From an uncultured Candidatus Saccharibacteria bacterium (GTDB taxonomy: Bacteria; Patescibacteriota; Doudnabacteria; UBA920), in assembly GCA_964402965.1 (NCBI GenBank), contig CAYODY010000005.1:1-60584 (forward strand): DNA of 60,584 nucleotides, in the 5' to 3' direction. The translations under genes and the position numbers were made by a program. The notes under the pieces are model-generated. The model had not been told where the DNA came from. It did no database searches and saw nothing but the letters and a program-made list of their open reading frames with translations. Positions 16,166 to 46,983 of the stretch are shown here, one piece after another (position 1 is the stretch's first letter; every line of letters starts with the position of its first letter).

Positions 16166-16224
16166 CTTCAGCTTGACAATAGTTCAAGAACATCTTAAAA
16201 TATTCTTAGATGTCAACTCCACGC
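16114..16224. repeat. 15-nt perfect inverted repeat flanking the T arm and CCA
   Basis: GCGTGGAGTTGACAT at 16114-16128 and its exact complement ATGTCAACTCCACGC at 16210-16224. Confidence 0.9.
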
Positions 16225-21619: not shown

Positions 21620-21714
21620 AAATTATCTTTTTGTTTCAAAACTAACCTTGTTAAGGGTATTATAACATAATTTAGAAACTTTATACAATTTAGCTTGTCT
21701 AGTATACTTTGATT

Positions 21715-23496
21715 ATGAAAAAACGATTTTTATCCCCTGGAGAAAAAATAGAAAATTTCTCAACGTGGGCATTATTAAAAAGTATTAACCAGAAAATTAA
21801 ACCATACCGAGGAAAGTTTCTCTTGGGAAGTTTTTTGCGACTGACTGCTGATATTTCGAATCTATATCCTACTTATGCCTTAGCTTCCCTAATTACAATT
21901 CTATCCAAAGGCAACGTTGCCCAAAGTGCAAATAAAATTTGGACAATTGCAATATTGTGGATAATATCAGCTATATACAGGGTGATATGTAAATATTTTT
22001 CGAAGAAAATACTTTTCAGGATTTCTCAAAAAACTGCTTTAGATGTTGAACAAGAATCTATTAGCCACATGTTCAATTTAGACATGGCGTGGCATGAAAA
22101 AGAAAACACAGGAAACAAACTTCAAAGAATTAAAAATGCTTCGAATGGTTACAGAATGTTGATGAACATTTGGATCAATAATTTGATTGAAATCATTATT
22201 AACTTTATTGGAGGTCTCGTAATACTATTTAACTTTAACAAACCTATTGCGCTTGCTACTGGAATTTTTCTAATTTGTTACCTAACTCTTTCAAAAATTA
22301 TTCGAGAGAAAGCAGCGATCGCTTACAATGAAGTTAATATTCAGGGAGAAGAACTCACTGGCCTTCAATACGAAGCCGTTGCCAACATTCGTTCAATAAA
22401 AATAATGTCCATGGTGAAAACCATGAAGGACCTCCTTAATTTACGAACAAATTCAGTATTCGAAGCAATTAAAAAGAACGTCTTTTGGACTCAATTCAGA
22501 AGTTTGGTTGAGCAAGCGCTTGCATTAATTTTTAAATTTGGAATTTTAATTTTTGTAGTATATGGAATTATTAAAGGAAGATACGAGGCTGGCCTGTTAA
22601 TTCTATTCAATAACTACTTTAATAATGTATGGATGTCTGTTGATGAACTTTCCAATGTCAGTCAGGATATTTTGGTTTCAAGGTACTCAATCTCCCGTCT
22701 AAATAAAATCATGGATGAGAAAGTCACAATCGATGACGAAAAAGGCAAAAGACCATTCCCTACTGACTGGAAAACGATCCAATTAAAAAACGTAAACTTC
22801 TCTTACGAGAATAACTTAGTTTTGAAAAATATATCTTTTGTTATAAACAGAGGTGAAAAAATTGGTATCATCGGGCTCTCTGGAGCTGGTAAATCCACAA
22901 TATTTAAACTTCTTCTAAAAGAATATGAGAACTTTGATGGTGAGATTTTAATAGATAATGTGCCGATCCGAGAGATCAGCAAAAAGAAGTATTTTGAATC
23001 AACAGCAGCAGTACTTCAAGAAACTGAAGTGTTCAACTTCTCATTAAGAGAAAATATCTTTTTTGCTGGACCTGGAACTAAGAACAAAGAAAGCGAACTT
23101 CAGAAAGCACTAGAAATAGCTCACGTAACAGACTTTTTACCAAAACTTCAAAATGGCGTAGATACTGAGATTGGTGAAAAAGGAGTACGACTTTCTGGAG
23201 GAGAAAAACAAAGACTTGGCATTGCCAGAGCTGTGTTTAAAAATCCGCAACTTCTTTTACTAGACGAGGCAACCTCACATTTAGACTTAGAATCTGAAGA
23301 AAAGATTCAAGACTCACTGCACAAATTCTTTAAGAATGTCACAGCTGTTGTTATCGCCCACCGTCTTACAACAATTAAAGAAATGGATAAAATTATTGTT
23401 ATAGAAAATGGCGAAGTAATAGAATCTGGGAATTTTGCCGAACTAACCGCCAAGCGTGGACGATTCTTCGAGCTATGGGAAAAACAGAGATTGTAA
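21715..23496 (+). CDS. ABC exporter, fused permease and ATPase
   Basis: Walker A GLSGAGKST, signature LSGGEKQR, Walker B LLLLDEATS. ATG at 21715 is preferred because TATACT at 21703-21708 lies 6 nt upstream. Confidence 0.88.
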   Translation: MKKRFLSPGEKIENFSTWALLKSINQKIKPYRGKFLLGSFLRLTADISNLYPTYALASLITILSKGNVAQSANKIWTIAILWIISAIYRVICKYFSKKILFRISQKTALDVEQESISHMFNLDMAWHEKENTGNKLQRIKNASNGYRMLMNIWINNLIEIIINFIGGLVILFNFNKPIALATGIFLICYLTLSKIIREKAAIAYNEVNIQGEELTGLQYEAVANIRSIKIMSMVKTMKDLLNLRTNSVFEAIKKNVFWTQFRSLVEQALALIFKFGILIFVVYGIIKGRYEAGLLILFNNYFNNVWMSVDELSNVSQDILVSRYSISRLNKIMDEKVTIDDEKGKRPFPTDWKTIQLKNVNFSYENNLVLKNISFVINRGEKIGIIGLSGAGKSTIFKLLLKEYENFDGEILIDNVPIREISKKKYFESTAAVLQETEVFNFSLRENIFFAGPGTKNKESELQKALEIAHVTDFLPKLQNGVDTEIGEKGVRLSGGEKQRLGIARAVFKNPQLLLLDEATSHLDLESEEKIQDSLHKFFKNVTAVVIAHRLTTIKEMDKIIVIENGEVIESGNFAELTAKRGRFFELWEKQRL

Positions 23497-23551
23497 GCTC
23501 AAGATCGTCAGTTCAAAAATCCATTTTCCAAAGAAATAAAAAAGCATTCCC

Positions 23552-23611
23552 TAACGAGACTATTGGAGCTCAGCATCACGCGAAGCGTGAGCGTAGCGAC
23601 CTAGTCGAGGT
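23552..23611 (-). repeat. Hairpin-nested module, copy 1 (reverse orientation, different apical hairpin)
   Basis: The reverse complement reads acctcgactaggtcgctacg-ctcacgcttcgcgtgatg-ctgagctccaatagtctcgtta. It is enclosed by outer stem 23539-23551 / 23612-23624. Confidence 0.85.
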
Positions 23612-23635
23612 GGGAATGCTTTTTATATTTCTTAT

Positions 23636-24877
23636 CTATTTCATTTTCTTGCGAATGAACGCTGGAATATCTAATTCATCTTCATCTGTTTCATCCTTAC
23701 CCATTTGTTGTACTGGGTCTGCAGGTTTTGGACTGAACAACGGCTTGCGAACTTCTGGACGAGCAGGTTCTGCAATGTCTATATCTACAGAATTAGTGTT
23801 TGTTGTTTGAGATGGAGTTGCTGAAAATGGTGATGATTGCACTGGATGTGCCAATGGTTTGATCATTGGTTCATCTTGTGTTGGTGCAAAGTTAATGCTT
23901 GAAGGTCGACGATTGTGCTCATCGAACCCAGTTGCGATAACTGTAATGCGGATTTCATCGCCCATGCTTTCATCAATAACAGTACCGAACTTAACGCGAG
24001 CATCTGGGTCTACATTCTTAGTAATAACCTTAGCTGCTTCGTCTATTTCGAACATACCAAGGTCAGGACCACCGGTAATATTGAATAGAACGCCTTGAGC
24101 TCCGTCTATGGTCATATCTAGCAAAGGAGAGTTTACAGCGGCTTTAGCGGCCAATTCTGCGCGATTCTCACCACTTGCTTTACCAATACCCATCATAGCT
24201 GTACCGGCATCTTGCATAATAGTACGAATATCGGCGAAGTCGGCATTAACTACACCATGAGTAGTAATTAAATCTGAAATACCGGCAATCCCCTGACGAA
24301 GAACTTCATCAACAGTAGAGAATGCTTCAATTAAAGAAGTCTTTTTATCTATGATTTGTAAAATGCGATCGTTCTGAATAGAGATAATTGCATCTACTTT
24401 ATCTTTCAAATTTTCATAACCAGATTCTGCAATTTCTTTACGCTTACTACCTTCAAAAGTGAAAGGCTTAGTTACAACAGCAATTGTTAATATGTCGCGA
24501 TTCTTGCAAAGCTCTGCGATAATTGGTGCAGCACCTGTTCCAGTTCCACCACCAAGTCCACAAGTAATGAAAACCATGTCGGCGTTTGAAATTACTTCTT
24601 CAATTTCTTCTTGGCTTTCTTCTGCAGCTTGACGACCAAGTTCTGGATTCATTCCTGAACCCAAACCTTTAGTTATTGATTTTCCAATGTGAACTTTTTT
24701 GTCTGCTTGGTTATTGTGTAGAGCTTGAGCATCGGTGTTTACCGCGATAAACTCTACTCCACGAATTCCAAGCTGAGCCATACGGTTTACAGCAGTGGTT
24801 CCAGAACCACCAACACCCATCACCTTAATACGTGCAAATGTTTCAATTTTCGGTTTAACTTCCATAGATTTTTTCAT
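23636..24877 (-). CDS. ftsZ: Cell-division GTPase FtsZ
   Basis: GVGGSGTTAVNRM and the tubulin signature GGGTGTGAAP. Confidence 0.97.
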   Translation of the reverse strand: MKKSMEVKPKIETFARIKVMGVGGSGTTAVNRMAQLGIRGVEFIAVNTDAQALHNNQADKKVHIGKSITKGLGSGMNPELGRQAAEESQEEIEEVISNADMVFITCGLGGGTGTGAAPIIAELCKNRDILTIAVVTKPFTFEGSKRKEIAESGYENLKDKVDAIISIQNDRILQIIDKKTSLIEAFSTVDEVLRQGIAGISDLITTHGVVNADFADIRTIMQDAGTAMMGIGKASGENRAELAAKAAVNSPLLDMTIDGAQGVLFNITGGPDLGMFEIDEAAKVITKNVDPDARVKFGTVIDESMGDEIRITVIATGFDEHNRRPSSINFAPTQDEPMIKPLAHPVQSSPFSATPSQTTNTNSVDIDIAEPARPEVRKPLFSPKPADPVQQMGKDETDEDELDIPAFIRKKMK

Positions 24878-25011
24878 CAGTTTATATTTCTATATTAAAG
24901 AAAAAAACGCAAAATAACAACTCAAACGGTCTAAAACTCTTTCAATTGTTGTTTTGCGTTTTATTTTTATTACTCCAGCACTATTTTAGTGCTAATTGGA
25001 CCAAAGTGCCT

Positions 25012-26259
25012 TTATGGCATGATTGCTTTGAACCACTTCTTCAATTTTACCACATTCTGGTTTTCTAACAAGCCCTTAAATGGATTTGAAAAACTCATGC
25101 CAGAAAGACTTGTGGTGAAATTACTACCCCACAATGCAAGACCTACAACTGTCGCAAATGAAGGATCAACAACTTGGTCAATAATAGTATCTGTTTCACT
25201 AGGCACTCCTACTGAAACTGGAAGTCGCAAATAGTGTTTTGCAAATTCAACAATTCCAGGAAGCGCTGCCCCACCACCAGTTAGAACAATTCCTGCTGGG
25301 AGCTTTCCATCTTTGTCTACTCGTTTTAATTCTGCTGTAATACGATCAAAAATTTCTTCCAAACGTGCTTCAATAATTTCTGCAACTAGAAGTTGAGAGA
25401 TTCTTGTTTCTTCATCTGGATCTATTTTAGACATATCTATTTCAGCAAGCTTGTCTACAAGAGCAGGACTTGCCTTGCCATACAAAGTTTTAACTTTTTC
25501 TGCAGTATCAATTGTACAACGCAGTCCAATAGCAATGTCGTTTGTCATGTGCATTGAACCAATCGGAACAATCGCTGTGTGAACTAAATTATTTTCTTCA
25601 TACACCGCTAAAGAAGTAGTGCCTGCGCCTAGGTCTATAACTGCCACACCTAACTCTTTTTGACGCTTATTTAAAACAGATTGTGCTGCTGCCAAAGGTG
25701 AAAGCACCAACTGGTCTACCTCCAAACCAGCTTGTGTAATTGCCTTAGTAAGGTTTTTCAAGAAAGGAAGCGCGCCATGAATAATAATAGTCTCTACTTC
25801 CAAACGAATTCCTGTCATCCCAATTGGATCTTTAATCCCCGACTGGCCATCTAGAGTAAAGGTTTTTGGAATAACATGAATAACTTCTCTGTTCGGTGGA
25901 ATTGAAACAGCTTGAGAAGCATCTATTACTCTAATAACATCGTTCTCGGAAATTTCACCATCTGCACGAGACACAGCAATAACGCCTTTTGAATCTAAAC
26001 AAGAAATGTGGTTACCACCAACAGAAATATTTGCATGAGCAACTGGCACACCAGTCATCCTTTCAACTTTTTCTAAGACTGCTGAAATAGAAGATACAGC
26101 TTCATCTATATCTACAATAACGCCTTTACGCATTCCATTTGCAGGAACACTTGCGGCGCCAATTATGTTAATACGACCAGTTTCTTCTAATTTACCCTGC
26201 ACCACGCGAATGGTGTGAGTTCCAACATCTAGGCCGACTATGTATTGTTCTTTTGCCAT
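25012..26259 (-). CDS. ftsA: Cell-division protein FtsA
   Basis: Actin-fold motifs VGLDVGT, VIDLGAGTT and LTGGGA. It lies directly upstream of ftsZ. Confidence 0.92.
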   Translation of the reverse strand: MAKEQYIVGLDVGTHTIRVVQGKLEETGRINIIGAASVPANGMRKGVIVDIDEAVSSISAVLEKVERMTGVPVAHANISVGGNHISCLDSKGVIAVSRADGEISENDVIRVIDASQAVSIPPNREVIHVIPKTFTLDGQSGIKDPIGMTGIRLEVETIIIHGALPFLKNLTKAITQAGLEVDQLVLSPLAAAQSVLNKRQKELGVAVIDLGAGTTSLAVYEENNLVHTAIVPIGSMHMTNDIAIGLRCTIDTAEKVKTLYGKASPALVDKLAEIDMSKIDPDEETRISQLLVAEIIEARLEEIFDRITAELKRVDKDGKLPAGIVLTGGGAALPGIVEFAKHYLRLPVSVGVPSETDTIIDQVVDPSFATVVGLALWGSNFTTSLSGMSFSNPFKGLLENQNVVKLKKWFKAIMP

Positions 26260-26281
26260 ACTTTGTTTTTAAATAGATGAG

Positions 26282-26722
26282 TTAGCTCAATTTTTCTTTG
26301 AGCAGTTTAGCTACCAATGCTCCGTCGGCGGTGTTACCAAAGTGCCCTTTTAAAGCACCCATGGCTTGTCCAAAATCTTTGGTTGTCCAAGAGTTTTCAG
26401 CAATTTTAGATTCAATAATTTTCCCAATTTCTTCTTCACTGACTTGTTCAGGAAGAAATACAGATAAAACTTTCAATTCCGCTTCTTCTTTTTCCGCTTG
26501 TTCAATACGACCAGAATCGCGAAAAGCAGTAGCTGCTTCTTTGCGTCGCTTAGCTTCAGATTGAACCAATGTCAAAACATCGGCGTCAGTGAGTTCTGTG
26601 CCTTTAGCAATTTGATCGTTTTGAATTCGAGTTTTTAAAGCGCGAAGTGTGTCTGCAGAGATTTGATCTCGTGCCTTTAAGGCAGTTGTCAATGCAGATT
26701 CAACTTCTGAAAGATTGGGCAT
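26282..26722 (-). CDS. GatB/YqeY-domain protein
   Basis: ALKARD....TLR.L...I...., 146 aa with the typical YqeY layout. Confidence 0.7.
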   Translation of the reverse strand: MPNLSEVESALTTALKARDQISADTLRALKTRIQNDQIAKGTELTDADVLTLVQSEAKRRKEAATAFRDSGRIEQAEKEEAELKVLSVFLPEQVSEEEIGKIIESKIAENSWTTKDFGQAMGALKGHFGNTADGALVAKLLKEKLS

Positions 26723-26786
26723 GAAAATTTTGTTTTAAATTTAGTTTCGCTTGCGCGAGATTTTTTGGATATTGTCTAACTTCAAC

Positions 26787-27023
26787 CTATCGGCGACCAC
26801 GAGATGGTTTAACCGGTTTACCAAGACGCTTTAGTTCTTCACGAACTTCGCGCATTTCACTACGACGTTGAGCATCTGTACGTTTTAGGTTACGACTCTG
26901 TGCTGGCGCAAAAAAGCGCGTCTTGCGGGCGCGAATTAGAACACCGCTTTGTTGAATCTTACGATTAAAACGGCGGAGTAGGTTATCAAATGATTCGTTA
27001 TCTTTACGTTTTACTTCTACCAA
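26787..27023 (-). CDS. rpsU: 30S ribosomal protein S21 (TTG start)
   Basis: VEVKRKDNESFDNLLRRFNRKIQQSG.L...RK..FF..P. GAGGTG Shine-Dalgarno upstream. Confidence 0.88.
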   Translation of the reverse strand: MVEVKRKDNESFDNLLRRFNRKIQQSGVLIRARKTRFFAPAQSRNLKRTDAQRRSEMREVREELKRLGKPVKPSRGRR

Positions 27024-27132
27024 AAAATTTCACCTCACTTTAAAATGTGGCCTCAAGGACCTTAATCTCAGTAATTATACGTCATTTCCCCTCGGAGGTC
27101 AAATTGACGATCAACCCTCAAAACTAATTACC

Positions 27133-27191
27133 ACCTCGACTAGGTCGCTACGATTTGCTTTCAGCAAATCTGGGCTCCAATAGTCTCGTTA
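27133..27191 (+). repeat. Hairpin-nested module, copy 2
   Basis: acctcgactaggtcgctacg-atttgctttcagcaaat-ctgggctccaatagtctcgtta. It is enclosed by outer stem 27115-27132 / 27192-27208. Confidence 0.85.
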
Positions 27192-27212
27192 GGTAATTAG
27201 TTTTTGGGTTAT

Positions 27213-27542
27213 TTATTCAATTAGAAAATCCAGCTGTTCTTTAGGAATCCCTAATGATAAACCATAGTTAACAGCAGGGATCCATGAATCCTTATTATCA
27301 TATTCAAATTTGAAAATCTTATTCTTATAGACTGCTATAATACTATTTCCATTCCAAAAATGCATATACCAACTAACACCATTGATTTCTTGAGAGAGCT
27401 TATTAATATCTTCTTCTGATATTTCGACAGTATATAAATGCCAACCCAAATTTTCAGTTTTTCTAGAACTGATTATTTTGAAATCAGTTAATATTTTTGG
27501 GTTTACTAAACTCTCTAAGATAATAGTGCCAGTATATTCCAT
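27213..27542 (-). CDS. Hypothetical protein
   Basis: Start moved to MEYTGT. TGtTATAAT at 27549-27557 lies 6 nt upstream. The longer ORF would run into the 27554-27573 hairpin arm. Confidence 0.5.
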   Translation of the reverse strand: MEYTGTIILESLVNPKILTDFKIISSRKTENLGWHLYTVEISEEDINKLSQEINGVSWYMHFWNGNSIIAVYKNKIFKFEYDNKDSWIPAVNYGLSLGIPKEQLDFLIE

Positions 27543-27553
27543 ATTTCTATTAT

Positions 27554-27647
27554 AACAAATAACCGCCATCTCTGAACGCATACGAGGTCATATATCCAAG
27601 AAAATCTATATGCCCGAGTCTAAGTGAAGAGATGGCGGTTATTTGTT
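27554..27647. other. Perfect 20-bp stem enclosing a 54-nt loop
   Basis: aacaaataaccgccatctct at 27554-27573 pairs perfectly with agagatggcggttatttgtt at 27628-27647. A T-run follows. Confidence 0.8.
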
Positions 27648-27651
27648 TTTA

Positions 27652-27993
27652 TTATTCTTCCAATTGCTTCCCACCAAGTAAATGCATATGTAAGTGCTGA
27701 ATTACTTGTCCGCCTTCTTTTCCGCTATTTATGACGATCTTAAATCCGGATTCAGAAATACCAGTTTTTAGGGCGTAATTTTTTGCAGCGAGAATAAGTT
27801 CACCAATTAAGTTAGTGTCTTCATCTGTTAATTCATTTACAGATTTAATATGGCGCTTAGGCATTACCTGAACATGCACGGGTGCTTTTGGCATAATATC
27901 TCGAAGAACCATCACATCTTCATTTTCAAAAAGGATATCGCCTGCCACTGTCTTGTTACCAATATTACAAAAAATACAATTTGGATCTGTCAT
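27652..27993 (-). CDS. HIT-family nucleotide hydrolase (HinT-like)
   Basis: Histidine triad HLHMHLLGG; CIFCNI near the N-terminus. Confidence 0.88.
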   Translation of the reverse strand: MTDPNCIFCNIGNKTVAGDILFENEDVMVLRDIMPKAPVHVQVMPKRHIKSVNELTDEDTNLIGELILAAKNYALKTGISESGFKIVINSGKEGGQVIQHLHMHLLGGKQLEE

Positions 27994-28008
27994 TTATTTC
28001 TATTTTAA

Positions 28009-29355
28009 TTAACGTTCAAGTCTTTTCTTAACTTCTGCAATTATTTTATCATACGAAAATATTTCTTGCATACCACTTTTTACATCACGCAAAATTACCA
28101 TTTCGTCCATTGCTTCTTTTTGTCCCATAATTAAAGCGAGTGGTGCCTTCATTTCTTCAGCTTGTTTAAGTTGATTCTTAACTCCTACTGTACCAAAATG
28201 ATCATGAACACTGATTTGATGTGCAATTAGGTCGCGGAAAAGTTTTAAACTTCGTTTTGCTGCCAACTCTCCCAATGGAACCAAATAAACATCGCTATGG
28301 TTTTCTGGACGAACATCAGATTCTGAAAGTTCCATGGCTCTTACTAAGCCCGCAAGACTCCCTGTGAATCCAAACGCTGGCATAGCTTTTCCAGAAATAC
28401 TTTTTAGCAACAATTCGTGATGTGCAGCTTCGCCAATAACAATTGTCTGATTTCCTTTTTTATATTTAACAATCAAACTTGTTCCAGTAGAACCTTCGGA
28501 ACCAAAATACAATTGATTCAATTGATACGGAAGTGCAAGTTCATCTAAAGCTTCTAAAATGTCTGTGAAATGTTTACGAGATGCATCATCTAAAAAGTCT
28601 ACTATTGCAGGAGCTTCTGCGGTAATAACTTGGCAATCCATATTGTTGCAACTCAAAACGTTCAACACCCGACCACGAACCTGAGCAGTGCAATTATCAC
28701 AAAGCTCGAACTCTTTGCCTTTGAGATAGTCTTTCAAAACACTGGCATATGCCGCTTGGGATGTTGCGTCTCCTGCTGTATTAATTTCTAGAAGCACTTC
28801 TCCATCTAATCCTAGACGTTGAGTTAAATCCCATACAGCACTAATAACCTGAGCTTCTGTTAAATGGTTAAACTGACCGAAGACCTCATATCCAAATTGA
28901 TAATTAAATTGCAAAGCACCTTTTGTATCTAATTCAGCAACATTCCCTAAATACATCCATTTAGACATAGGTTGTTCATCCATAATCTTAGATTGAACAT
29001 AGTGCCTTAAAACAGAAGGAAGCACTGAAGATCTAACTCCCATTGGCTTACTTCCACCTTGTACAAACAGAATGCGTTCTAACAGTTCAGGTTGGCTTTT
29101 AAAATAATCGTTATATGTTTTTTGCTCCTCTACGATAGAAGTTTCAACGGGATGAAAACCGTACAATTTAGAAATAGTTCTAATCTGTTGTAGAATTACG
29201 CTTAAATATGGGCTATTCTGTGTGGCGATGTCTCTTAGGCCATTAATATTCCCACTCTTTGCGACTTTAGTAGGAGCTGATTTTTCTGCTGCTGCCTTTT
29301 CTAAGGCAATTTGTTTGGCGGTAGCCGCAACAGTTTTTTTAGCAGTTTTAAGCAT
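28009..29355 (-). CDS. Degenerate HisRS paralogue (HisZ-like) with a 4-Cys insertion
   Basis: Class-II HisRS-like core and a C-terminal anticodon-binding-like domain. The motif 2 region reads KWMYLGNVAELDTKGALQFNYQFGYEVFG. Insertion CDNC...CNNMDC. K/A-rich N-terminus. Confidence 0.6.
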   Translation of the reverse strand: MLKTAKKTVAATAKQIALEKAAAEKSAPTKVAKSGNINGLRDIATQNSPYLSVILQQIRTISKLYGFHPVETSIVEEQKTYNDYFKSQPELLERILFVQGGSKPMGVRSSVLPSVLRHYVQSKIMDEQPMSKWMYLGNVAELDTKGALQFNYQFGYEVFGQFNHLTEAQVISAVWDLTQRLGLDGEVLLEINTAGDATSQAAYASVLKDYLKGKEFELCDNCTAQVRGRVLNVLSCNNMDCQVITAEAPAIVDFLDDASRKHFTDILEALDELALPYQLNQLYFGSEGSTGTSLIVKYKKGNQTIVIGEAAHHELLLKSISGKAMPAFGFTGSLAGLVRAMELSESDVRPENHSDVYLVPLGELAAKRSLKLFRDLIAHQISVHDHFGTVGVKNQLKQAEEMKAPLALIMGQKEAMDEMVILRDVKSGMQEIFSYDKIIAEVKKRLER

Positions 29356-29369
29356 TGTCGATATTTAGA

Positions 29370-29984
29370 CTAATTAGTAAATTGGGCTTTTGGAAATTTA
29401 GTTAATCCAAAACTGTTCATAGGAAATACGCGGAGCCAAGCAGTACCAACAATATCACTCTTTGGAAGAACACCCCACACACGAGAATCACTTGAAGCTA
29501 AACGATTGTCTCCTAATACATAGTACTCATCACTACCAAGAGTTACTGTTTCATCTTTTCCGAAAGTAATGTCTTGATTTGAAAGATACGGTTCATTTAA
29601 TGCACTACCTTCTGGATGCTCTGCGTTGTAAACATACACTTTACCATTTTCTACTTTTACTTTTTCACCTGGTAAACCAATAATGCGTTTAATAAAAAAT
29701 TGTGATATGTCTTTTGGATATCTAAATACTATTACATCCCCTCTTGCCGGTTCATTAAATCTGTAAGTCATTTTATTGATGACTAAATATTCGCGGTTGT
29801 GATAGTTAGGCACCATTGATGAACCCGAAACTATAAATGGCTCGGCTACAAAATAGCGGAATCCTACCATTACAATGAATGCAATGATCATAATTCTAGC
29901 GAGTTCCCAGAGGAACGAACCAACCGAAGGATTTTTTTCCGGTGTAGTTTCAGATGAAGTTTCAATGATTTCGTTTTCAGACAT
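29370..29984 (-). CDS. lepB: Signal peptidase I
   Basis: SGSSMVPN (catalytic Ser box), GDNRLASSDSR, and an N-terminal TM helix. The start at MSENEI is preferred but uncertain. Confidence 0.85.
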   Translation of the reverse strand: MSENEIIETSSETTPEKNPSVGSFLWELARIMIIAFIVMVGFRYFVAEPFIVSGSSMVPNYHNREYLVINKMTYRFNEPARGDVIVFRYPKDISQFFIKRIIGLPGEKVKVENGKVYVYNAEHPEGSALNEPYLSNQDITFGKDETVTLGSDEYYVLGDNRLASSDSRVWGVLPKSDIVGTAWLRVFPMNSFGLTKFPKAQFTN

Positions 29985-30135
29985 ATTTTGTTTCCTTATG
30001 TAAATAACATTCCAACTATACCACCCTGTTTCAGTCATTGCAAGAGCTAAAATAGATAGATCTTAGACATATTTCTTACCCTAGCGAAGAAAGTCGTTTT
30101 CGAGTATAATACCTAAGTAAACTTTACAGAAAGTC

Positions 30136-31578
30136 ATGGAAGAAATTAATTTTGTAGACAAAAAAATAACCCCACCAGCAATATCCACTACCAATTATGG
30201 TGGTGGTAATTTTACTCCTGAGCCCAAACCACCAAAACGTAGCAACCCTCGCAGGAAATGGAAATGGTTTTTAGGAATTTTAGCAGTGCTAATTCTTGTT
30301 TTCGGTATTTTTGTAGCGGCACGTGCTAGTGGTTTAATTAATAAAATTTTCATTGGTCAAAATTCAAGCATCTACAGCAGAATTTCTGATTTAATATCTT
30401 CAAGTACTGGCGGCACAAAACTTGAAGGTGAAAATGATGGACAAGTTAATGTGTTGCTATTGGGAATTGGCGGACCAGAACACGATGGTCCATATTTAAC
30501 GGACACAATGATTCTTGTTCAAATGCGTCCTAAAGATAAAAAGGCAACTTTAATTTCTATACCTCGTGATTTTCTTACAAACACAAAAGAAATTGGCCAA
30601 AGAAAAATAAACGCAGTATTTGCGGAAAGCTACAGTCGAAGTAAGGACTGGAATTCTGCTGGCGAAAGCATTCGCCAAGTTGTTTCTAAAATGACTGGTT
30701 TAGATATCCCCTACTTTGCAGTCATAGACTTTAAAGGTTTTGAAAAAACAGTAGATCAACTCGGTGGAGTAGATATACAAATTGAAAACACTTTCACAGA
30801 TTACACCTTTCCAGACAATGGTTTAGGATACATCCCTCCTGTAACTTTCAAAGAAGGACAAGAACACATGGACGGAAAACGTGCTTTAATTTTTGCCCGC
30901 TCTCGTCATGCCGCTGGATCTGAAGGATCAGACTTTGCTCGTAGCGCCCGCCAACAGAAAATTATTTATGCAGTTAAATCCAAAGTAGAGTCTTTGAATA
31001 TTGTTGCTGATGCAGGTAAAATTAACGAGATTTTTTCTATTGTTGGACAGCATTTCCATACCAACCTAACACCTGGTCAAATGCTTCATGCTTACAATCT
31101 AGTAAAAGATTTTCCTAAAGAAAATATTATTAATTTAAGTTTGGATCCTGAAGGTGGAGTGATTTGTCCACAAACTCTAGAAGAAAGTGGCGCATGGGTA
31201 CTTACAATTTGTCCTGGTAAAACAACTAACGACTTACAAGACTACTTCAAAAATAGTTTTTCAACTGGTCAGCTTGCTTCTGAAAAAGCAACTGTTTGGT
31301 TAGCAGACAGTAGTACAACAGGCAAACTATACAAACAAGCAGAAAAAGAATTAACCAACGCTGGAATTAGAGTATTGAAAGTACTATATGGAGGCCAACC
31401 GCTAACTCAAAATGTTATATATTCTGTGAACCATAAACCTGCTACATCTGATTTCATTACTAGTAAATTAAATGCAAGCTCAGTTTCACTTCCACCTCCA
31501 GGAATTAAGATAGATTCTTCGAAGGTAGATGTTATCGTAATTCTTGGTAGTAATGATGCTGCCAACTCAACTAAATAA
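30136..31578 (+). CDS. LytR-CpsA-Psr (LCP) family cell-envelope phosphotransferase
   Basis: N-terminal TM helix, then VLLLGIGG....GPYLTDTMILVQM...ISIPRD and ARSRH. Confidence 0.82.
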   Translation: MEEINFVDKKITPPAISTTNYGGGNFTPEPKPPKRSNPRRKWKWFLGILAVLILVFGIFVAARASGLINKIFIGQNSSIYSRISDLISSSTGGTKLEGENDGQVNVLLLGIGGPEHDGPYLTDTMILVQMRPKDKKATLISIPRDFLTNTKEIGQRKINAVFAESYSRSKDWNSAGESIRQVVSKMTGLDIPYFAVIDFKGFEKTVDQLGGVDIQIENTFTDYTFPDNGLGYIPPVTFKEGQEHMDGKRALIFARSRHAAGSEGSDFARSARQQKIIYAVKSKVESLNIVADAGKINEIFSIVGQHFHTNLTPGQMLHAYNLVKDFPKENIINLSLDPEGGVICPQTLEESGAWVLTICPGKTTNDLQDYFKNSFSTGQLASEKATVWLADSSTTGKLYKQAEKELTNAGIRVLKVLYGGQPLTQNVIYSVNHKPATSDFITSKLNASSVSLPPPGIKIDSSKVDVIVILGSNDAANSTK

Positions 31579-31584
31579 TAAATT

Positions 31585-32904
31585 ATGTCATCTCAACTAC
31601 CAATCTTAGCAATCGTCGGTGAACCAAACGTGGGCAAATCCACTTTGATGAACAAAATTGCTGGCAAACGACTTGCCGTTACTTCAAACGTTGCAGGCAC
31701 AACTCGCGATCGTCACTACGTAGACACCGAATGGAACGGTGTAGACTTTACTATGGTCGATACAGCAGGAGTTACTTTTAACAACAAGCAAGAGTTAGAA
31801 GCAGAACTTGAAGAACAAATAGATATTGCTGTTCAGGAAGCGAATATGTTGCTGTTAGTTGTAGATGCTAAAGCAGGAGTTGATGTAATAGACCGCAAAG
31901 CATTGCTTAAATTCCGCAAACTAAAAAAGCCGATTGCCGTTGCAGTAAACAAACTAGATTCTCCTAACAACTTAGAAGCGCTAACTGCACCATTTTTAAA
32001 GTTAGGAATTAAGCATGTCTTCCCTGTATCTTCTGCGACAGGACGCGGAATTGGCGATTTACTGGATCAAGTTGCTATAGAACTAAAAGCATCAGCTGTT
32101 CGCAAAGAAGTTGTCCCAGTTGGAATTTCTGTAAGTATTGTTGGAAAACCAAATGTTGGTAAATCTAGTATTTTGAACAAAATTCTTGGCGAAAATCGTG
32201 TAATAGTTTCCCCTATTGCTGGAACAACTCGCACTTCTATAGACACCCACACCGTAATTGATGGACAAGATTATACTATAATAGACACCGCTGGTTTAAA
32301 GCGTAAAGAACATAGACAAAAACAGCCAGACGTTTTCTCTGGATTCCAGACATACAAATCTATCCGCCGTAGTGATGTTGTTTTGTTCGTTATAGACGCT
32401 TCACAAACCGTAACTAAACAGGATCAAGTTATTGCAGGTGAAATTTTTGATCAAACAAAAGGTTGCATTATTGTTGCCAATAAAATGGATTTGTTTGATG
32501 GTGATGAAGATAAATTAAAGGATTATATTTCTCATCACTTCCCTTTCCTGTGGTTTTGTCCTGTATTTTTTGTGTCTGCTGAAACAGGAGATGGCTTAGA
32601 TGAAGCCATTGCTCGTATAAAACCAATTTACGACAACAGGTTAAAACAAGTACCTCAGGAAGAAATAGATAGTCTTTGGGAAAAGACAATGAAAAATAAT
32701 CCGCCAAAGAGAATGCTAGACCAAAAAGTTCCGAAAGTTTACGGTCTGGAACAAATAGATACAGACCCGCCAGCATTCTTGTTAACTGTTAACCACCCTG
32801 CTGCTATTTCTACTCAATACAAACGTTTTCTTCTTAAAGAAATTATTAAGAATTTGGACTTCTGGGGTACTCCTATTAAATTGCATTTGAAGAAGAAAGA
32901 GTAG
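31585..32904 (+). CDS. der: Ribosome-biogenesis GTPase Der/EngA
   Basis: Two G domains (GEPNVGKST...DTAG...NKLD and GKPNVGKSS...DTAG...NKMD) plus a KH-like C-terminus. Confidence 0.93.
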   Translation: MSSQLPILAIVGEPNVGKSTLMNKIAGKRLAVTSNVAGTTRDRHYVDTEWNGVDFTMVDTAGVTFNNKQELEAELEEQIDIAVQEANMLLLVVDAKAGVDVIDRKALLKFRKLKKPIAVAVNKLDSPNNLEALTAPFLKLGIKHVFPVSSATGRGIGDLLDQVAIELKASAVRKEVVPVGISVSIVGKPNVGKSSILNKILGENRVIVSPIAGTTRTSIDTHTVIDGQDYTIIDTAGLKRKEHRQKQPDVFSGFQTYKSIRRSDVVLFVIDASQTVTKQDQVIAGEIFDQTKGCIIVANKMDLFDGDEDKLKDYISHHFPFLWFCPVFFVSAETGDGLDEAIARIKPIYDNRLKQVPQEEIDSLWEKTMKNNPPKRMLDQKVPKVYGLEQIDTDPPAFLLTVNHPAAISTQYKRFLLKEIIKNLDFWGTPIKLHLKKKE

Positions 32905-32930
32905 ATAGAAATAAAATTAAAGGTGTTGTC

Positions 32931-32989
32931 ACCTCGATCAGGTCGCTACTATTTGCTTTCAGCAAATCTGGGCTCCAATGATCTCGTTA
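32931..32989 (+). repeat. Hairpin-nested module, copy 3
   Basis: acctcgatcaggtcgctact-atttgctttcagcaaat-ctgggctccaatgatctcgtta. It is enclosed by outer stem 32919-32930 / 32990-33001 between convergent genes. Confidence 0.85.
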
Positions 32990-33030
32990 GACAACACCTT
33001 TTTATTTTACAAATTTTACTCCAAAAGAAT

Positions 33031-34782
33031 TTACGCGTAGCTACCAGATTGAATGTGCCAAAGTTTTTGATATTTACCTTCTTGAGCTTTGAGCAATTCT
33101 TCATGTTTTCCTTGCTCAGTAATTTTTCCGTCTTCTATGACAACTATTCTGTCTACTGCCATGATTGTTGAAAGTCTATGAGCAATAACTATAGTTGTTT
33201 TACCTTTCATTAAAGTTTTTAAGGCATCTTGAATTAGACTTTCACTTTCAGAATCTAGTGAACTTGTTGCTTCATCCAAAACCAATATAGGTGCATTCTT
33301 TAATATAGCCCGAGCAATTGCCACGCGTTGGCGTTCTCCACCAGATAGCTTAACCCCACGTTCTCCAACTAATGTATCATACTTGTTTGGAAGCTTTTCA
33401 ATAAATTCATGACAATGCGCAGCCTTTGCCGCTTCTACTACTTCATCCAAGGTTGCATCTTGTTTTGCATAACGGATGTTTTCGAAAATGCTTCTATGGA
33501 AGAGAATAGGGTCTTGCGGTACTAACGACATATTTTGTCTCAGTGAAACTTGGGTTACCTTAGAAATATCTTGATTATCTATTGTGATTTGTCCATTAGT
33601 TATATCGTAAAAACGGAACAACAGCTTAACGATAGTGCTTTTACCTCCACCAGAAGGACCCACAAGAGCAACTCGCTCACCTGCCGAGATTGTTAAATTA
33701 AACTTATCAAATATTTCTGGATTATCTTTATACTTGAAAGAAATATTGGAAAAATTAATCTCTCCATTTTTTACGAACATCTTATCTGCATTCGGTAGAT
33801 CTTTTACCTCATGAGAAGTAGTTAAGATTGTCGTCATTTCATTAGCATCTGCGATACTCTGGTAAAGTTTACGCATGTTTCTTCCTATTTCCCACAAATG
33901 GTGAAATACACTCAACATAAAACTTTGTAGTAAAACAAAGTCCCCTACTGTAATTTTCCCTTGTCGCCACAAATGAACTGCAGCATACATTAAAACAAAC
34001 TCAAGGATTATCATCATACCCCCTTGAAAAATATCTACATAATTTGAAATATCCCAAGCTTTTCTTCGACGTACATACTGTTCGTGAATAATGCCACTAA
34101 AGGTAAATTTTTCTGTCTTCTCTGCTGCAAAAACCTTGATGGCGCTATTATTAGTCAATGTGTCTGCCACGTGGCCTGAAACTTTCGTATCTTGTTCTGC
34201 TGTACTTAAATCGTATTTAAATCTAAATCTTGAGAGTGACCAAGTGCAAACCAAATACACAGAAACCCAAATGCCCAAAATATATGCCGCAAGAGGAATC
34301 TGAAAAGCCAGAGTAACAAAAATAAATAAAAGTAAAATTATTGTCCTGCCTATTCCAAAGATAAATTCGTCAGCAACTGTTTCAAAAGCTCTATCAAAAC
34401 GTCCTAACTTAGCGACTAAACCACCAACAAAATTGTTGCTAAAAAAATCAGTAGAGTGATCTAAAATATAGTTATAACAAGTTTTATATAAATCACGTTT
34501 TGTTTTTCCCTGAAAAACATTAGTAAATGCAATTACAGAGCGCCATCCTATGTTATAGGTTATAGCGGAAGCTGAAATATAAAAAACCATTCTAATAGGA
34601 TAATCAATAGAACTAAAATCTCCAGTCGCAACATAATTGAGCAAAAATTTATAGAAGAACGGCTGAGCGATATCAGACACCATTACTAATACCATAAACA
34701 GACAAATGAAAAAGATATACCAGCTGTACTGTTTAGAATGTTGCCAAAAGATTTTTAGAGTTTGCCATGTGAGTGATTTCAT
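33031..34782 (-). CDS. ABC exporter, fused permease and ATPase (MsbA-like)
   Basis: Walker A GPSGGGKST, signature LSGGERQR, Walker B ILVLDEATS. Confidence 0.9.
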   Translation of the reverse strand: MKSLTWQTLKIFWQHSKQYSWYIFFICLFMVLVMVSDIAQPFFYKFLLNYVATGDFSSIDYPIRMVFYISASAITYNIGWRSVIAFTNVFQGKTKRDLYKTCYNYILDHSTDFFSNNFVGGLVAKLGRFDRAFETVADEFIFGIGRTIILLLFIFVTLAFQIPLAAYILGIWVSVYLVCTWSLSRFRFKYDLSTAEQDTKVSGHVADTLTNNSAIKVFAAEKTEKFTFSGIIHEQYVRRRKAWDISNYVDIFQGGMMIILEFVLMYAAVHLWRQGKITVGDFVLLQSFMLSVFHHLWEIGRNMRKLYQSIADANEMTTILTTSHEVKDLPNADKMFVKNGEINFSNISFKYKDNPEIFDKFNLTISAGERVALVGPSGGGKSTIVKLLFRFYDITNGQITIDNQDISKVTQVSLRQNMSLVPQDPILFHRSIFENIRYAKQDATLDEVVEAAKAAHCHEFIEKLPNKYDTLVGERGVKLSGGERQRVAIARAILKNAPILVLDEATSSLDSESESLIQDALKTLMKGKTTIVIAHRLSTIMAVDRIVVIEDGKITEQGKHEELLKAQEGKYQKLWHIQSGSYA

Positions 34783-35757: not shown

Positions 35758-36480
35758 ATGAATACAAACACATCCTATTTTGATTCCCTGGAATCAAAAA
35801 TATATTTCCTTCGTGGTCGGAGGGTAATGTTAGATAGCGACCTAGCTTTTTTGTATGGCGTGCCAACAAAAAGATTAAATGAGCAAGTCAGAAGAAACAC
35901 ACAGCGATTCCCCGAAGATTTTATGTTTCAACTCACACAAGAGGAGTTCGACCATATACGGTCGCAATTTGTTTCCGCATATGTGGATAACAATTCTTTA
36001 AGGTCACAAATTGTGACCTTAAACAGTGGACAACTATCTTCAAGGTCGCAAATTGCGACCTTGAACGATCAAGATGGCTTAAATGAGCCAAACTTGAAGT
36101 CACAATCTGTGACCTCAAGTGGGGATAACCTACCTTCAAGGTCACAAATTGTGACCTTGAACAAAAGCATGAGGTCGCAAATTGAGACCACATCAAAACG
36201 TGGACAAAATATTAAGTACCTTCCCTTCGCATTTACCGAGCAAGGGGTGGCAATGCTATCTTCTGTTTTAAAAAGCGAGCAAGCAATTCTAGTAAATATT
36301 CATATTATGCGGACATTCACAAAAACGCGTGGGATGTTGGCACAAAACCAACAACTCCGCGAACTCATAGAGAATCTGGAAATTAAATACGACGCCAATT
36401 TTAAAACCCTATTAGACGTCATTGAACTAATATTAACCCCGCAAGACATTGTAGAGAAAGGAAAAAATGAACGAATATAA
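35758..36480 (+). CDS. ORF6N/KilA-N-like DNA-binding protein with an internal RSQ(I/F)(V/A)T repeat expansion
   Basis: IYFLRGRRVMLDSDLAFLYGV.TKRLNEQV.RN..RFP.DFMFQL and YLPFAFTEQGVAMLSSVLKS. Confidence 0.75.
   Translation: MNTNTSYFDSLESKIYFLRGRRVMLDSDLAFLYGVPTKRLNEQVRRNTQRFPEDFMFQLTQEEFDHIRSQFVSAYVDNNSLRSQIVTLNSGQLSSRSQIATLNDQDGLNEPNLKSQSVTSSGDNLPSRSQIVTLNKSMRSQIETTSKRGQNIKYLPFAFTEQGVAMLSSVLKSEQAILVNIHIMRTFTKTRGMLAQNQQLRELIENLEIKYDANFKTLLDVIELILTPQDIVEKGKNERI
36000..36159. repeat. Perfect 21-23 nt palindromes inside the CDS
   Basis: 36000-36020 aaggtcacaaattgtgacctt; 36041-36063 caaggtcgcaaattgcgaccttg; 36137-36159 caaggtcacaaattgtgaccttg. Degenerate copies lie near 35959, 36099 and 36171. 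Confidence 0.9.
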
Positions 36481-41543: not shown

Positions 41544-43259
41544 CTAAAATTGTTGAGTATTTACTGGTTCCTCACTGCTAAGGGAACCATGCTCAACTTT
41601 GGGTCTGTAGCTCAGTTGGTAGAGCAGTGGCCTTTTAAGCCATTTGTCGCGGGTTCGAATCCCGCCGGACCCACCAAATGAGTCTTGCTCGAATATAGGA
41701 TTGCCTTTAGTTTTATTACGGCATAAGTAATCCAACGGTTCTTGCAAGACAGCACGGACAATTTGTCCATCACGCATATACAATTCTTTGAATAACGTTC
41801 GAGCCAAGAGAGCCTTCATTTGAGGCTCTTTTGCGTTTTGGTAGGCATACGCGCAACTAACCGTTAGTGATAGTGCAATCTCAACAGTACGGACGACTCC
41901 CGCAATTTTACTTTCAACTTTACCGAGTTCATCAGTTAACTTTGTATCTTCCATTCCTAATTCAGCCATAACCGTATGGTACAAATCCATATCTCCAGAG
42001 GTGTTATTTTCTTTATCAACTAACTGAAGAACTAAGTTTTTCTTCTGCCGTTTAATGTTCGCTACTTTCCCTAGTATATCCTTACGGGCTTTTTCATAGA
42101 TAACATGTTCATCAGAAAACAATCCCCTGACTTTTGCTTGAAGCTTTTCAGTAGTAGATACAGGCAGGTTGATAGTTTGAAGAAGTTTCTCAAACTGATT
42201 TTCATACTCAGACTCATGATGGTACTTCTGACTACAAGGTACTTTCCTTTTCTTGATAGCCTTTAGACAACGAAGATACCGATAGATGTTCTTTTTACGA
42301 GTTACCTGCTCATCACTAGTCATTTTACTACTGCACTCATCGCAGTATGAGATGCCTTTAAGGATAGAAAACAAACGCCACTTCCGACTTGAACTACTAG
42401 AGCGTGATGAGCATACCGCTTGGGCTTTATCGAATAACGCACGATCTAAAAATAGTTCGTGGTTACCATTTTCATTTACAACTCCGTCCCATATAATATG
42501 CCCAATATAGAATTTGTCTTGGAGAATGCGAGCCAAATAGCTAGCTTGCAAAACACTGCGAGTCTGACCTTTAAATAAACGAAGTGGAAACCCTTCATCA
42601 ATAAGCTGTTCAGCTAAATCACGAGTTGACCAGTTGCCAGTAGCATACAGTTCATATGCCCTAGTGACCCATTTAGCCTCTGTCCAGTCTACTTCTATCC
42701 ACGCCTTAACTTTACCAGTAGACGCTTTCTCCTGAACATTTTTATATCCATAAGGGGCTGTCCTTGGCCAACCCCCAGCTTTCGCTTTCTGTATTAGATT
42801 GTTCTTAACTCGGCGACCATGTTGAGCAGAATAGAATTCTGCTAGTGAAGATAGGATTCCTTCCAACATTTGACCCTCAGGGCTGTCATCAATACCTTCT
42901 GTGGCGGAAATTAATTTAACATTGTGTTTACGCAATGCGACTTTAATAAGTGAGAGGTCATCACGATTGCGAGCTAGGCGGCTTAGGTCGTAAACAGTGA
43001 TTGCCTGAACAGACTTATCTTTTTCACAACGATTTAGCATATCCAGCAGTGCTGCACGATCCATTGTGCGAGCACTCAGTCCTGCATCTGTGTAAATGTC
43101 TGTCTCAAGGTTAAATGTGTAGCCATTTTGCTCTGCGTATTCTGTACATTTAGCTTGCTGTGTTGGGAGAGCAATGCCTTTTTCGGCTTGCTGGTCGGTT
43201 GATACCCGTAGATAAATGAGGGTAATACCTTTTGATTGATTTATTGATTGTTCGTTCAT
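41544..43259 (-). CDS. Large serine recombinase; the last ~44 codons are read-through across the tRNA-Lys antisense
   Basis: Resolvase N-domain ITLIYLRVSTDQQ...YDLSRLARN, a recombinase domain, and zinc ribbon CDEC...YLRC. The C-terminal FGGSGGIRTRDKWLKRPLLYQLSYRP is the reverse complement of the tRNA. Confidence 0.85.
   Translation of the reverse strand: MNEQSINQSKGITLIYLRVSTDQQAEKGIALPTQQAKCTEYAEQNGYTFNLETDIYTDAGLSARTMDRAALLDMLNRCEKDKSVQAITVYDLSRLARNRDDLSLIKVALRKHNVKLISATEGIDDSPEGQMLEGILSSLAEFYSAQHGRRVKNNLIQKAKAGGWPRTAPYGYKNVQEKASTGKVKAWIEVDWTEAKWVTRAYELYATGNWSTRDLAEQLIDEGFPLRLFKGQTRSVLQASYLARILQDKFYIGHIIWDGVVNENGNHELFLDRALFDKAQAVCSSRSSSSSRKWRLFSILKGISYCDECSSKMTSDEQVTRKKNIYRYLRCLKAIKKRKVPCSQKYHHESEYENQFEKLLQTINLPVSTTEKLQAKVRGLFSDEHVIYEKARKDILGKVANIKRQKKNLVLQLVDKENNTSGDMDLYHTVMAELGMEDTKLTDELGKVESKIAGVVRTVEIALSLTVSCAYAYQNAKEPQMKALLARTLFKELYMRDGQIVRAVLQEPLDYLCRNKTKGNPIFEQDSFGGSGGIRTRDKWLKRPLLYQLSYRPKVEHGSLSSEEPVNTQQF
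41601..41676 (+). tRNA. tRNA-Lys(UUU), CCA encoded
   Basis: Canonical cloverleaf. Acceptor gggtctg/cggaccc, D arm gctc-agttggta-gagc, anticodon arm gtggc-cttttaa-gccat, T arm gcggg-ttcgaat-cccgc. Confidence 0.93.
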
Positions 43260-43417
43260 AATAGTTACTGTTAATTATTTGGATAATAAAACCCTGCCTA
43301 GGACTCGGTGTCGCAGCCGAGGTGCTGTAAACTTTGCCTAGGTAGGGCTTTGGGATTCTATGTCGCAGATAATTGTTACTTTAATTATATCATACGACCT
43401 GCCTCTACCAGAGTCTG

Positions 43418-43448
43418 GTCTTTGCTGACAATGCTGTCTTGCTGTCAA
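43418..43448 (+). repeat. Island junction motif, copy E
   Basis: gtctttgctgaca-atgctgtcttgctgtcaa is related to the minus-strand reading of copies A, B and D. Confidence 0.55.
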
Positions 43449-44998: not shown

Positions 44999-45150
44999 TA
45001 TTGTTTCCTTTCTTTGTTAGCAAGTTGTTCCCCAGCGTGAAGCTGTCGAGCAATAGTCGCTAACGCCAATGCCAAACAATCCACAAGCCGATTTTCTTGG
45101 GCTTGCATATCCATATCATTTATTTCAATTGCTTTAAGGGCGTCTGACAT
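44998..45150 (-). CDS. 50-aa ORF translationally coupled to the P-loop gene (TAATG overlap)
   Basis: Hand translation gives MSDALKAIEINDMDMQAQENRLVDCLALALATIARQLHAGEQLANKERKQ*. Its stop overlaps the downstream ATG by 1 nt. Confidence 0.4.
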   Translation of the reverse strand: MSDALKAIEINDMDMQAQENRLVDCLALALATIARQLHAGEQLANKERKQ

Positions 45151-45233
45151 TGATTAAATTTAATAAAAAAGACCATAGCGTTTTGCTATAGCCTTAATAT
45201 ATTCTTTTAGTAGTCATTCCAACACGGAACGGA

Positions 45234-45280
45234 TGTGAAAGATTGTGATTAATTGTGATACGAATGTGACATGAATGTGA
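45234..45280. repeat. Five phased TGTGA iterons
   Basis: TGTGA cores start at 45234, 45244, 45254, 45265 and 45276, giving spacings of 10, 10, 11 and 11 bp. Confidence 0.85.
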
Positions 45281-45281
45281 T

Positions 45282-45980: not shown

Positions 45981-46108
45981 ACTTATATTCTACCGCATTT
46001 AAGCCAGTTTTCATAACTCATTACTTATCAAGTTCAGAGTGAGGAAAATTGAACAATTCTATACTTACGACCAGAGAGAAAGGGTCTAAATCAGAGTATG
46101 CCGAAATC

Positions 46109-46744: not shown

Positions 46745-46762
46745 ACCTTAATTTTAAATCAA

Positions 46763-46792
46763 GTCAGCAGGACAGTATAGACGGCATAATTT
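46763..46792 (-). repeat. Island junction motif, copy D
   Basis: The minus strand reads aaattATGccgtctatactgtcctgctgac, a mini-ORF MPSILSC* ending 20 nt before the 46744 start. Confidence 0.55.
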
Positions 46793-46983
46793 GAACATCT
46801 TATGCAGAGGTTTCCCTACACAGGACTCCTGAGGATATAGAAAGGATTGTTTACCAACCACTCCCCACCCACCCCCTTCATACTCTCTGTGTTCCTAATA
46901 CAATTCCTCTTTAATGAATTGCAATTCAAACCGCCACCCACCTGTGAGTGGCTTGTTAATCATTAAACGAAAGGGTTACTCAA

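Follow-up and report, generated by a model that had tools for sequence, protein, structure and literature searches.

A clade-restricted family of rod-like hairpins with covarying helices and an invariant internal loop at gene ends of an uncultured Patescibacterium

Results

Genomic setting

In the window, by which we mean the whole stretch of 60,584 nucleotides analysed here, the hairpins are flanked by ftsA, ftsZ, rpsU, yqeY, hisS, a HIT-family gene, der and genes for ABC transporters. The FtsZ encoded in the window gave matches on metagenome contigs only, the closest named relative being a Candidatus Doudnabacteria protein (79% identity), and judged from these sequences the host is an uncultured Patescibacterium (CPR). 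Copy 1 of the hairpin lies 11 nt past the stop codon of ftsZ and is convergent with an ABC-transporter gene ending at 23496, copy 2 lies 8 nt beyond the stop codon of a small ORF and directly upstream, on the transcribed strand, of the rpsU promoter, and copy 3 starts 14 nt past the stop codon of der/engA (32904) and ends 29 nt before that of a convergent ABC-transporter gene (33031). The coordinates are collected in Table 1.

Several other features were observed in the window. The spacer between ftsA and ftsZ (24898-24968) contains a hairpin, AAAACGCAAAA-AACAA...TTGTT-TTTTGCGTTTT, which may be a leader or attenuator of ftsZ; its stem sequence is kept in all relatives from L128 to L137, unlike the outer stems (P1) of the hairpins described below. 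On the minus strand at 27024-27102, the rpsU promoter is followed by a leader consisting of ATTAAGGTC, a variable hairpin and AAGTGAGGTGAA, and then by a TTG start codon; this leader is conserved across relatives and may be an autoregulatory structure for S21. At 16114-16224, a perfect 15-bp inverted repeat (GCGTGGAGTTGACAT) surrounds a tRNA-like 3′ end (GGGAGTTCAATCCTCC...GTCCACCA). A weak tmRNA match (12 bits) ends at 16165 and ARAGORN finds no tmRNA; the region may be an unusual or fragmentary ssrA. The ORF6N-domain gene at 35758-36480 contains, at 35960-36190, five in-frame copies of the palindrome AAGGTCRCAAATTGYGACCTT, each encoding an RSQIVTLN-like peptide and jointly splitting the ORF6N domain match. 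tRNA-Lys (41601-41676) is overlapped by the 3′ end of a gene for a large serine recombinase (41544-43259, minus strand); behind this gene lie ORFs without a Pfam match, and the region 41544-47000 is probably a mobile element or prophage integrated at tRNA-Lys. The ABC-transporter gene convergent with ftsZ (21640-23532) varies among strains of the same species, being absent in L124 and L126, and the same polymorphism was observed in a second species (L128 with the gene, L129 without it). One of its junctions is situated 11 nt beyond the copy 1 hairpin; a link between the polymorphism and the hairpin element was rejected, as the junctions have neither a repeat nor a second hairpin.

Table 1. Positions of the hairpins and their parts in the window, and of homologous copies in relatives (loci designated L).
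Feature	Positions	Strand	Remarks
Copy 1, whole hairpin	23539-23624	-	Core 23551-23612
rpsU promoter-like site	27074-27102	-	TTGACC-17-TATAAT, 11/12 matches; adjoins copy 2, downstream on the transcribed strand
Copy 2, whole hairpin	27120-27204	+	Flanked by a 109/122-aa ORF (minus strand, stop at 27213) and the rpsU promoter
Copy 2, 61-nt core	27132-27192	+	P2 arms 27138-27142 and 27181-27185; P4 27153-27169; GCTAC 27147-27151; CTGGGC 27170-27175
Type B rod hairpin	about 27554-27647	-	4 nt past the HIT-gene stop; 20-bp P1
Copy 3, whole hairpin	32918-33002	+	P1 AAAGGTGTTGTC/GACAACACCTTT, then TTATTTT
Copy 3, 61-nt conserved core	32930-32990	+	CACCUC-GAUCA-GG-UC-GC-UAC-U[P4]C-UGG-GC-U-CC-AA-UGAUC-UCGUUAG
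Copy 3, P2 5′ arm	32936-32940	+	GATCA
Copy 3, invariant GCTAC	32945-32949	+	5′ half of P3 and of the 3x3 internal loop below P4
Copy 3, invariant CTGGGC	32968-32973	+	3′ half of the 3x3 loop and of P3
Copy 3, P2 3′ arm	32979-32983	+	TGATC
Full copy, L129	1510-1606	-
Full copy, L132	7057-7141	+
Full copy, L133	11203-11299	+
Full copy, L133	17970-18055	-
Full copy, L135	7573-7659	+
Full copy, L136	12592-12674	+
Full copy, L137	12679-12776	+
Full copy, L219	11229-11316	+
Full copy, L219	7589-7685	+
Truncated copy, L216	11220-11273		Found with the covariance models

Architecture of the rods

The helix for which selection was originally predicted, here called P2, is one segment of a rod-like hairpin of 85-100 nt. 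From the outside inwards, the rod consists of P1, an internal loop (CACCUC/UCGUUAG), P2, an AA bulge, GG/CC, a small loop, P3 (GC/GC), a 3x3 internal loop (UAC/UGN) and P4. All three window copies fold into a single long rod on either strand, and do so far better than shuffled sequences (z -3.8 to -6.3); with the copies of relatives included, the z values on the two strands range from -3.8 to -8.6. The outer stems of the window copies are all different and all perfectly complementary (AAAAAGCATTCCC/GGGAATGCTTTTT, AAAACTAATTACC/GGTAATTAGTTTT and AAAGGTGTTGTC/GACAACACCTTT). The core flanks of copy 1 equal those of copy 2 save for one base, and its apical hairpin is wholly different but still paired (TCACGC-TTC-GCGTGA vs. 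ATTTGC-TTTCA-GCAAAT in copy 2). A strain variant of copy 1 was observed in the window species (L124:3773-3834), with a UGG loop for UGA and a C to T change in the 3′ arm of P1 that gives a G-T wobble on the ftsZ-sense strand.

Downstream of the HIT-family gene, the window contains a rod of another type (type B), whose core, UUCACU-UAGACUCGGGC..P4..ACCUCG-UAUGCGUUCA, is unlike that of copies 1-3 (type A) and whose P1 shows covariation of its own. Homologues of type B were identified downstream of ftsZ in L128-L131 and downstream of the HIT gene in L216.

The double substitution between copies 2 and 3

The arms of P2 in copy 2 (GACTA with TAGTC) and in copy 3 (GATCA with TGATC) agree with the original prediction in position and base for base. 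The cores of the two copies differ at five of their 61 positions, and four of these are the CT to TC and AG to GA changes that convert GACUA/UAGUC into GAUCA/UGAUC. A single base (G27152 vs. T32950) had been described as the only other difference, which holds within the cores and fails in P1, inside the originally delimited span (32919-33001), where the two copies are mismatched at most positions (AAAACTAATTAC/GTAATTAGTTTT vs. AAAGGTGTTGT/ACAACACCTTT) and each is perfectly complementary. Together with the re-paired apical hairpin of copy 1, these P1 differences make the evidence for structure much stronger than the single event first seen.

The original observation comprised two copies and five differences only, which could leave room for coincidence, or for an assembly artefact, without any selected structure. 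However, when five random substitutions were placed on the 61-nt core in 2,000,000 simulated trials, only 0.014% (~1.4e-4) of the outcomes kept all predicted pairs while altering two or more of them on both sides. The three window copies are not assembly artefacts, since seven contigs of the same organism, assembled independently from other samples, carry all three without a single base change. Covariation is also seen across ten further sequences of the family (see below), and together these results refute this explanation, to which we attach next to no credence. An inversion of the segment between the P2 arms was also rejected as the source of the difference, the interior being unchanged. 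Conversion from another copy, rather than change in place, may have brought about the difference in P2; even then, selection preserving the helix would still be required somewhere.

Occurrence and covariation in relatives

In order to collect further copies, we used syntenic loci with 83-88% FtsZ identity and 80 metagenome loci encoding FtsA relatives, and searched the loci of relatives with two covariance models, the first (R1) built from six copies and the second (R2) from ten. In total, 12 full copies were identified, three in the window and nine in close relatives belonging to one clade of Patescibacteria; these are distributed over roughly 10 related genomes, and several of them occupy orthologous positions. 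More distant CPR bacteria, represented by 78 loci with FtsA identities of at most 68%, yielded no copy with either R1 or R2. No copy was matched by Rfam 15, either at gathering thresholds over the whole window or at E<=10 over 23400-33200. BLAST of copy 2 returned nothing in phage or plasmid records, specific pattern scans returned nothing in viral or metagenome contigs, and a 14-base pattern (ACCTCNNNNNGGTCGCTAC) run over genome contigs gave 120 chance matches, none with the 3′ half. The hairpin family is real, has no existing name and is confined to one narrow clade.

Six forms of P2 occur across the copies (GACUA/UAGUC, GAUCA/UGAUC, AACUA/UAGUU, AACUC/GAGUU, GAAAC/GUUUC and GAAAAC/GUUUUC). 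The helices keep their complementarity in the ten-copy alignment, which was fitted to the covariance model: standard pairing was observed in 94.6% of cells, compared with 72.4% in shuffles and 32-55% when the partner column was slid, 19 of 24 pairs showed two-sided change, a count equalled in none of 500 shuffles, and the covariation score was 0.66 vs. 0.20 in shuffles. The same helices emerged when six copies were aligned with MAFFT and without fitting to any structure, compensation being seen in 14 of 24 pairs. The original prediction from one pair of copies, that selection keeps the helix intact, is therefore supported well beyond copies 2 and 3. Throughout the family, only GCUAC and CUGNGC are invariant; these are the strands of P3 and of the 3x3 loop just below P4, and the neighbouring helices P2 and P4 are saturated with change. 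Most likely, a putative factor recognises the GCUAC...CUGNGC loop.

The changes are almost exclusively of a kind that leaves both strands able to pair. Among changed cells of the ten-copy alignment, 53 are two-sided and 2 one-sided, nearly all going from one Watson-Crick pair to another, and in minimum-free-energy folds of 16 elements G-U pairs account for about 2.5% on each strand (13/527 on the core strand, 15/532 on the opposite strand). Together, these two observations indicate that the hairpin must form from both strands, either as two RNAs or as DNA. Such two-strand pairing would be expected of a hairpin transcribed both ways or of a DNA hairpin, and speaks against an RNA acting from one strand. 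The structure had originally been proposed to be folded RNA or single-stranded DNA; that it is folded was borne out, while the data fit RNA and DNA alike.

Position at gene ends and terminator anatomy

Every copy lies 4-30 nt past a stop codon (4-14 nt for the hairpins of the window), and copies 1 and 3 sit between convergent genes, with the same kinds of position in relatives. Copy 2, placed between the stop codon of a minus-strand ORF and the rpsU promoter, has its core antisense to local transcription, and the location of that promoter puts the copy where the terminator of the upstream gene is expected. Relative to the upstream gene, nine of the type A copies have the sense orientation and three the antisense one, a ratio not built on independent counts, since several copies are positional orthologues. 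In the spacer between the HIT gene and rpsU, the window and L129 have the core in one direction, L135 and L219 in the opposite one. At the same three intergenic sites, relatives carry either a rod of type A or of type B, a truncated rod or a plain terminator.

In most of the hairpins compared, an A-rich head and a T-rich tail pair with each other and extend P1, typically in the form AAAATAAAAAA...TTTTTTATTTT; L137 and L133b are full copies without a clear T-run or head-tail pairing. The same AAAnAAAAAA/TTTTTTnTTT form was seen in plain short-loop terminators of the window. A hairpin with a U-tract and matching A-tract (in most copies) and a post-stop or convergent position are marks of intrinsic terminators, but P1 is A/U-rich and encloses about 60 structured nt instead of being a compact G+C-rich stem. 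A consensus terminator scan, which accepts only loops of 3-8 nt, called none of the copies. In their anatomy, the hairpins appear to match a bidirectional intrinsic terminator in which a conserved, structured insert takes the place of the loop.

Mosaic similarity among copies

Copies 2 and 3 share an identical 17-nt P4 and near-identical cores (5/61 positions different) and have P1 stems that diverge at most positions, a combination that uniform divergence cannot have caused. In L136, the closest relative (FtsA 89%), the copy downstream of ftsZ has a P2 and joining loops unlike those of copy 1, and the L129 copy, orthologous to copy 2 with the same position and orientation and almost the same P1, carries a different P4 hairpin. 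The outer module AAAAAGACTACATT-CACGAAAAC...GTTTTCTTAG is common to L219, L216 and L132 at two loci (downstream of the HIT gene in L132, downstream of ftsZ in L219 and L216), with interiors that differ. The truncated hairpin of L216 has the same closing stem and P2 as L219:11229-11316, and a 6-nt loop in place of the inner GCUAC-P4-CUGGGC, so an interior can be gained or lost while the hairpin persists. From such sequence comparisons, interiors appear to have been exchanged between copies by gene conversion or another copy-paste process. No clean empty site was found, since none of the relatives in the searched collections exceeds about 88% FtsZ identity.

Discussion

We consider it moderately probable that the hairpins are clade-specific, elaborated bidirectional intrinsic terminators and mRNA 3′-end structures with a conserved interior, a factor-bound loop and interiors that are exchanged among copies. 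A generic terminator stem, P1, lengthened by pairing of the A-run with the T-run, would close around a structured interior of about 60 nt in which P2, the AA bulge, GG/CC, P3, the 3x3 loop (UAC/UGN) and P4 follow one another. The interior would stack into one continuous rod, so that P1 closes beside the U-tract. Pairing in P2 and the other helices would then be kept because a continuous rod is needed for that closure, and since the rod would be needed whichever strand is transcribed, compensation would be almost exclusively of the Watson-Crick kind. The invariant GCUAC...CUGNGC loop would be recognised by a putative factor. Interiors would be swapped among copies of one genome by gene conversion or a similar copy-paste process, which would homogenise the cores and leave the closing stems locus-specific. 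A plain terminator needs no invariant internal loop, and something beyond termination must therefore be selected or copied.

The sharing of near-identical cores by unrelated closing stems within one genome would also be expected of a selfish, non-autonomous DNA element of the REP/REPIN or MITE kind, its single-stranded hairpin and GCTAC/CTGNGC read by a transposase encoded elsewhere; terminator positions would then be tolerated landing sites, or hairpin loops would be targeted. That genomes differ in the locus at which they carry the outer module AAAAAGACTACATT-CACGAAAAC, that both orientations are found, even opposite ones at the same site upstream of rpsU (L129 and the window vs. L135 and L219), that the presence of copies varies among close relatives, and that Watson-Crick-only compensation suits a DNA hairpin, all fit such an element. 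However, there are no conserved terminal inverted repeats, no direct target duplications were seen by inspection around copies 1-3, and it is the outer arms that vary, contrary to REP, REPIN and MITE elements. Neither was there a clean pair of empty and filled sites, L216 vs. L219 not being a clean excision. No transposase was found among the 30 window ORFs (about half) scanned against Pfam, and the sole recombinase, the large serine recombinase, belongs to another, probably integrated element at 41.5 kb. With 3 copies in 60 kb, the hairpins are few, and the site downstream of ftsZ is occupied in relatives down to 75% FtsA identity, which fits long-term retention. We therefore regard a selfish element as rather unlikely. 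Nearly as doubtful, in our judgement, is that the ~60-nt interior is itself an actively copying module that enters the loops or interiors of terminator hairpins, its own loop read by a dedicated putative protein of the clade; were this so, the nested rod-in-hairpin would represent a new hairpin-targeted element or a new factor-dependent termination or 3′-end system in CPR.

Invariant nucleotides in an internal loop amid freely covarying helices are the usual signature of functional RNA, and the terminator stem might host a strand-specific one, such as a protein-binding or RNase-processing element of the 3′ UTR, an embedded aptamer or a small ribozyme. Co-orientation with the upstream gene (9 of 12 type A and 4 of 4 type B), the U-G apposition in the 3x3 loop that is kept on the core strand in 7 of 10 copies, and the existence of terminator-embedded aptamers such as the HMP-PP riboswitch (PMC6478431) are consistent with this. 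Nevertheless, in three copies, among them the orthologous pair of copy 2 and L129, the core is antisense to all transcription nearby. The copies have no downstream gene in common that they could regulate, many are situated between convergent genes, and the apical loops are not conserved. The core strand is not enriched in G-U pairs, the opposite strand was predicted to fold slightly better in 16 of 16 cases, and even at E<=10 there was no Rfam family. By eye, we found no consensus for the hammerhead (CUGANGA...GAAA), for hairpin-ribozyme loops or for a K-turn (tandem GA by a 3-nt bulge), nor group II domain V, the 11-nt tetraloop receptor or SRP domain IV. A strand-specific RNA thus seems distinctly improbable. 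Three further candidates were set aside: a riboswitch, given both orientations and no consistently downstream gene; an anti-Shine-Dalgarno mimic, as the CACCUC of the window copies is not conserved in L132, L133 and L136; and an uptake signal, the conserved part being too long and the copies too few.

To our knowledge, almost nothing is known about how transcripts are ended or stabilised in the uncultured CPR/Patescibacteria. The family provides a sequence-defined marker of gene ends in one clade that is supported by covariation, and an example of a non-coding structure evolving in concert within a very small genome, while its invariant internal loop would predict a specific binding partner. 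Should this partner be found, the family could turn out to be a hairpin-targeting mobile element of a new class or part of a factor-assisted system for termination or 3′-end formation; if the hairpins are ornate terminators only, they are still an annotation landmark and a new candidate RNA/DNA motif missing from Rfam.

Comparison with known systems

REP/BIME and REPIN sequences of proteobacteria are extragenic palindromes at gene 3′ ends which form hairpins with compensatory changes, act as terminators or mRNA stabilisers and apparently spread; in REPs the arms are conserved, the hairpin is preceded by GTAG on its 5′ side, and a RAYT transposase goes with them. The present hairpins are similar in being dispersed at gene 3′ ends with compensatory changes. 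In contrast to REPs, it is the arms of P1, P2 and P4 that vary here, and CTAC is found 5′ of P4 on the core strand, corresponding to GTAG 3′ on the other strand. The scan of 30 window ORFs (about half) against Pfam revealed neither a RAYT nor a Y1/HUH transposase. A MITE was rejected, as the outer inverted repeats differ between copies and inspection revealed no direct repeats flanking copies 1-3. Integron attC sites are likewise structured hairpins with unpaired or bulged bases at the 3′ ends of variable genes, and GTTAGGT and GTTAGAC of copies 2 and 3 fit the attC R′ consensus GTTRRRY, a fit limited to copies 2 and 3 and L129. This candidate was also rejected; GTT is not family-wide (CTTAG and TTTTG occur), and there is no RYYYAAC partner, no cassette array and no integrase in the ORFs scanned.

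With ordinary bidirectional terminators the hairpins share the position after stop codons and between convergent genes and the pairing of an A-run with a T-run, and the same sites in relatives hold plain terminators; what sets them apart is an A/U-rich closing stem and, in place of the loop, some 60 nt of conserved, structured sequence. A conserved recognition motif inside a terminator hairpin is also found in the HMP-PP (thiS) riboswitch (PMC6478431). This riboswitch occurs in 5′ leaders in a fixed orientation and controls a defined downstream gene, whereas our hairpins lie at 3′ ends, are found in both orientations and share no downstream gene. Among described systems, the nearest analogue is the Tuberculosis Rho-independent terminator (TRIT) of Mycobacterium, which is conserved in sequence and structure, mostly bidirectional and located tightly at gene ends, and for which an additional motif-binding factor was proposed on the basis of this conservation (Gardner et al. 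2011; PMC3152330). Both are clade-restricted and probably bidirectional families of gene-end hairpins with a proposed extra factor. There are 147 TRIT copies per genome, with conservation in the stem (PMC3152330); compared by description only, the present family has an unrelated sequence, a variable closing stem around a conserved interior rod, 3 copies in 60 kb and a CPR host. Among dispersed, structured repeats associated with terminators, what is unusual here is the conserved interior together with its homogenisation within the genome.
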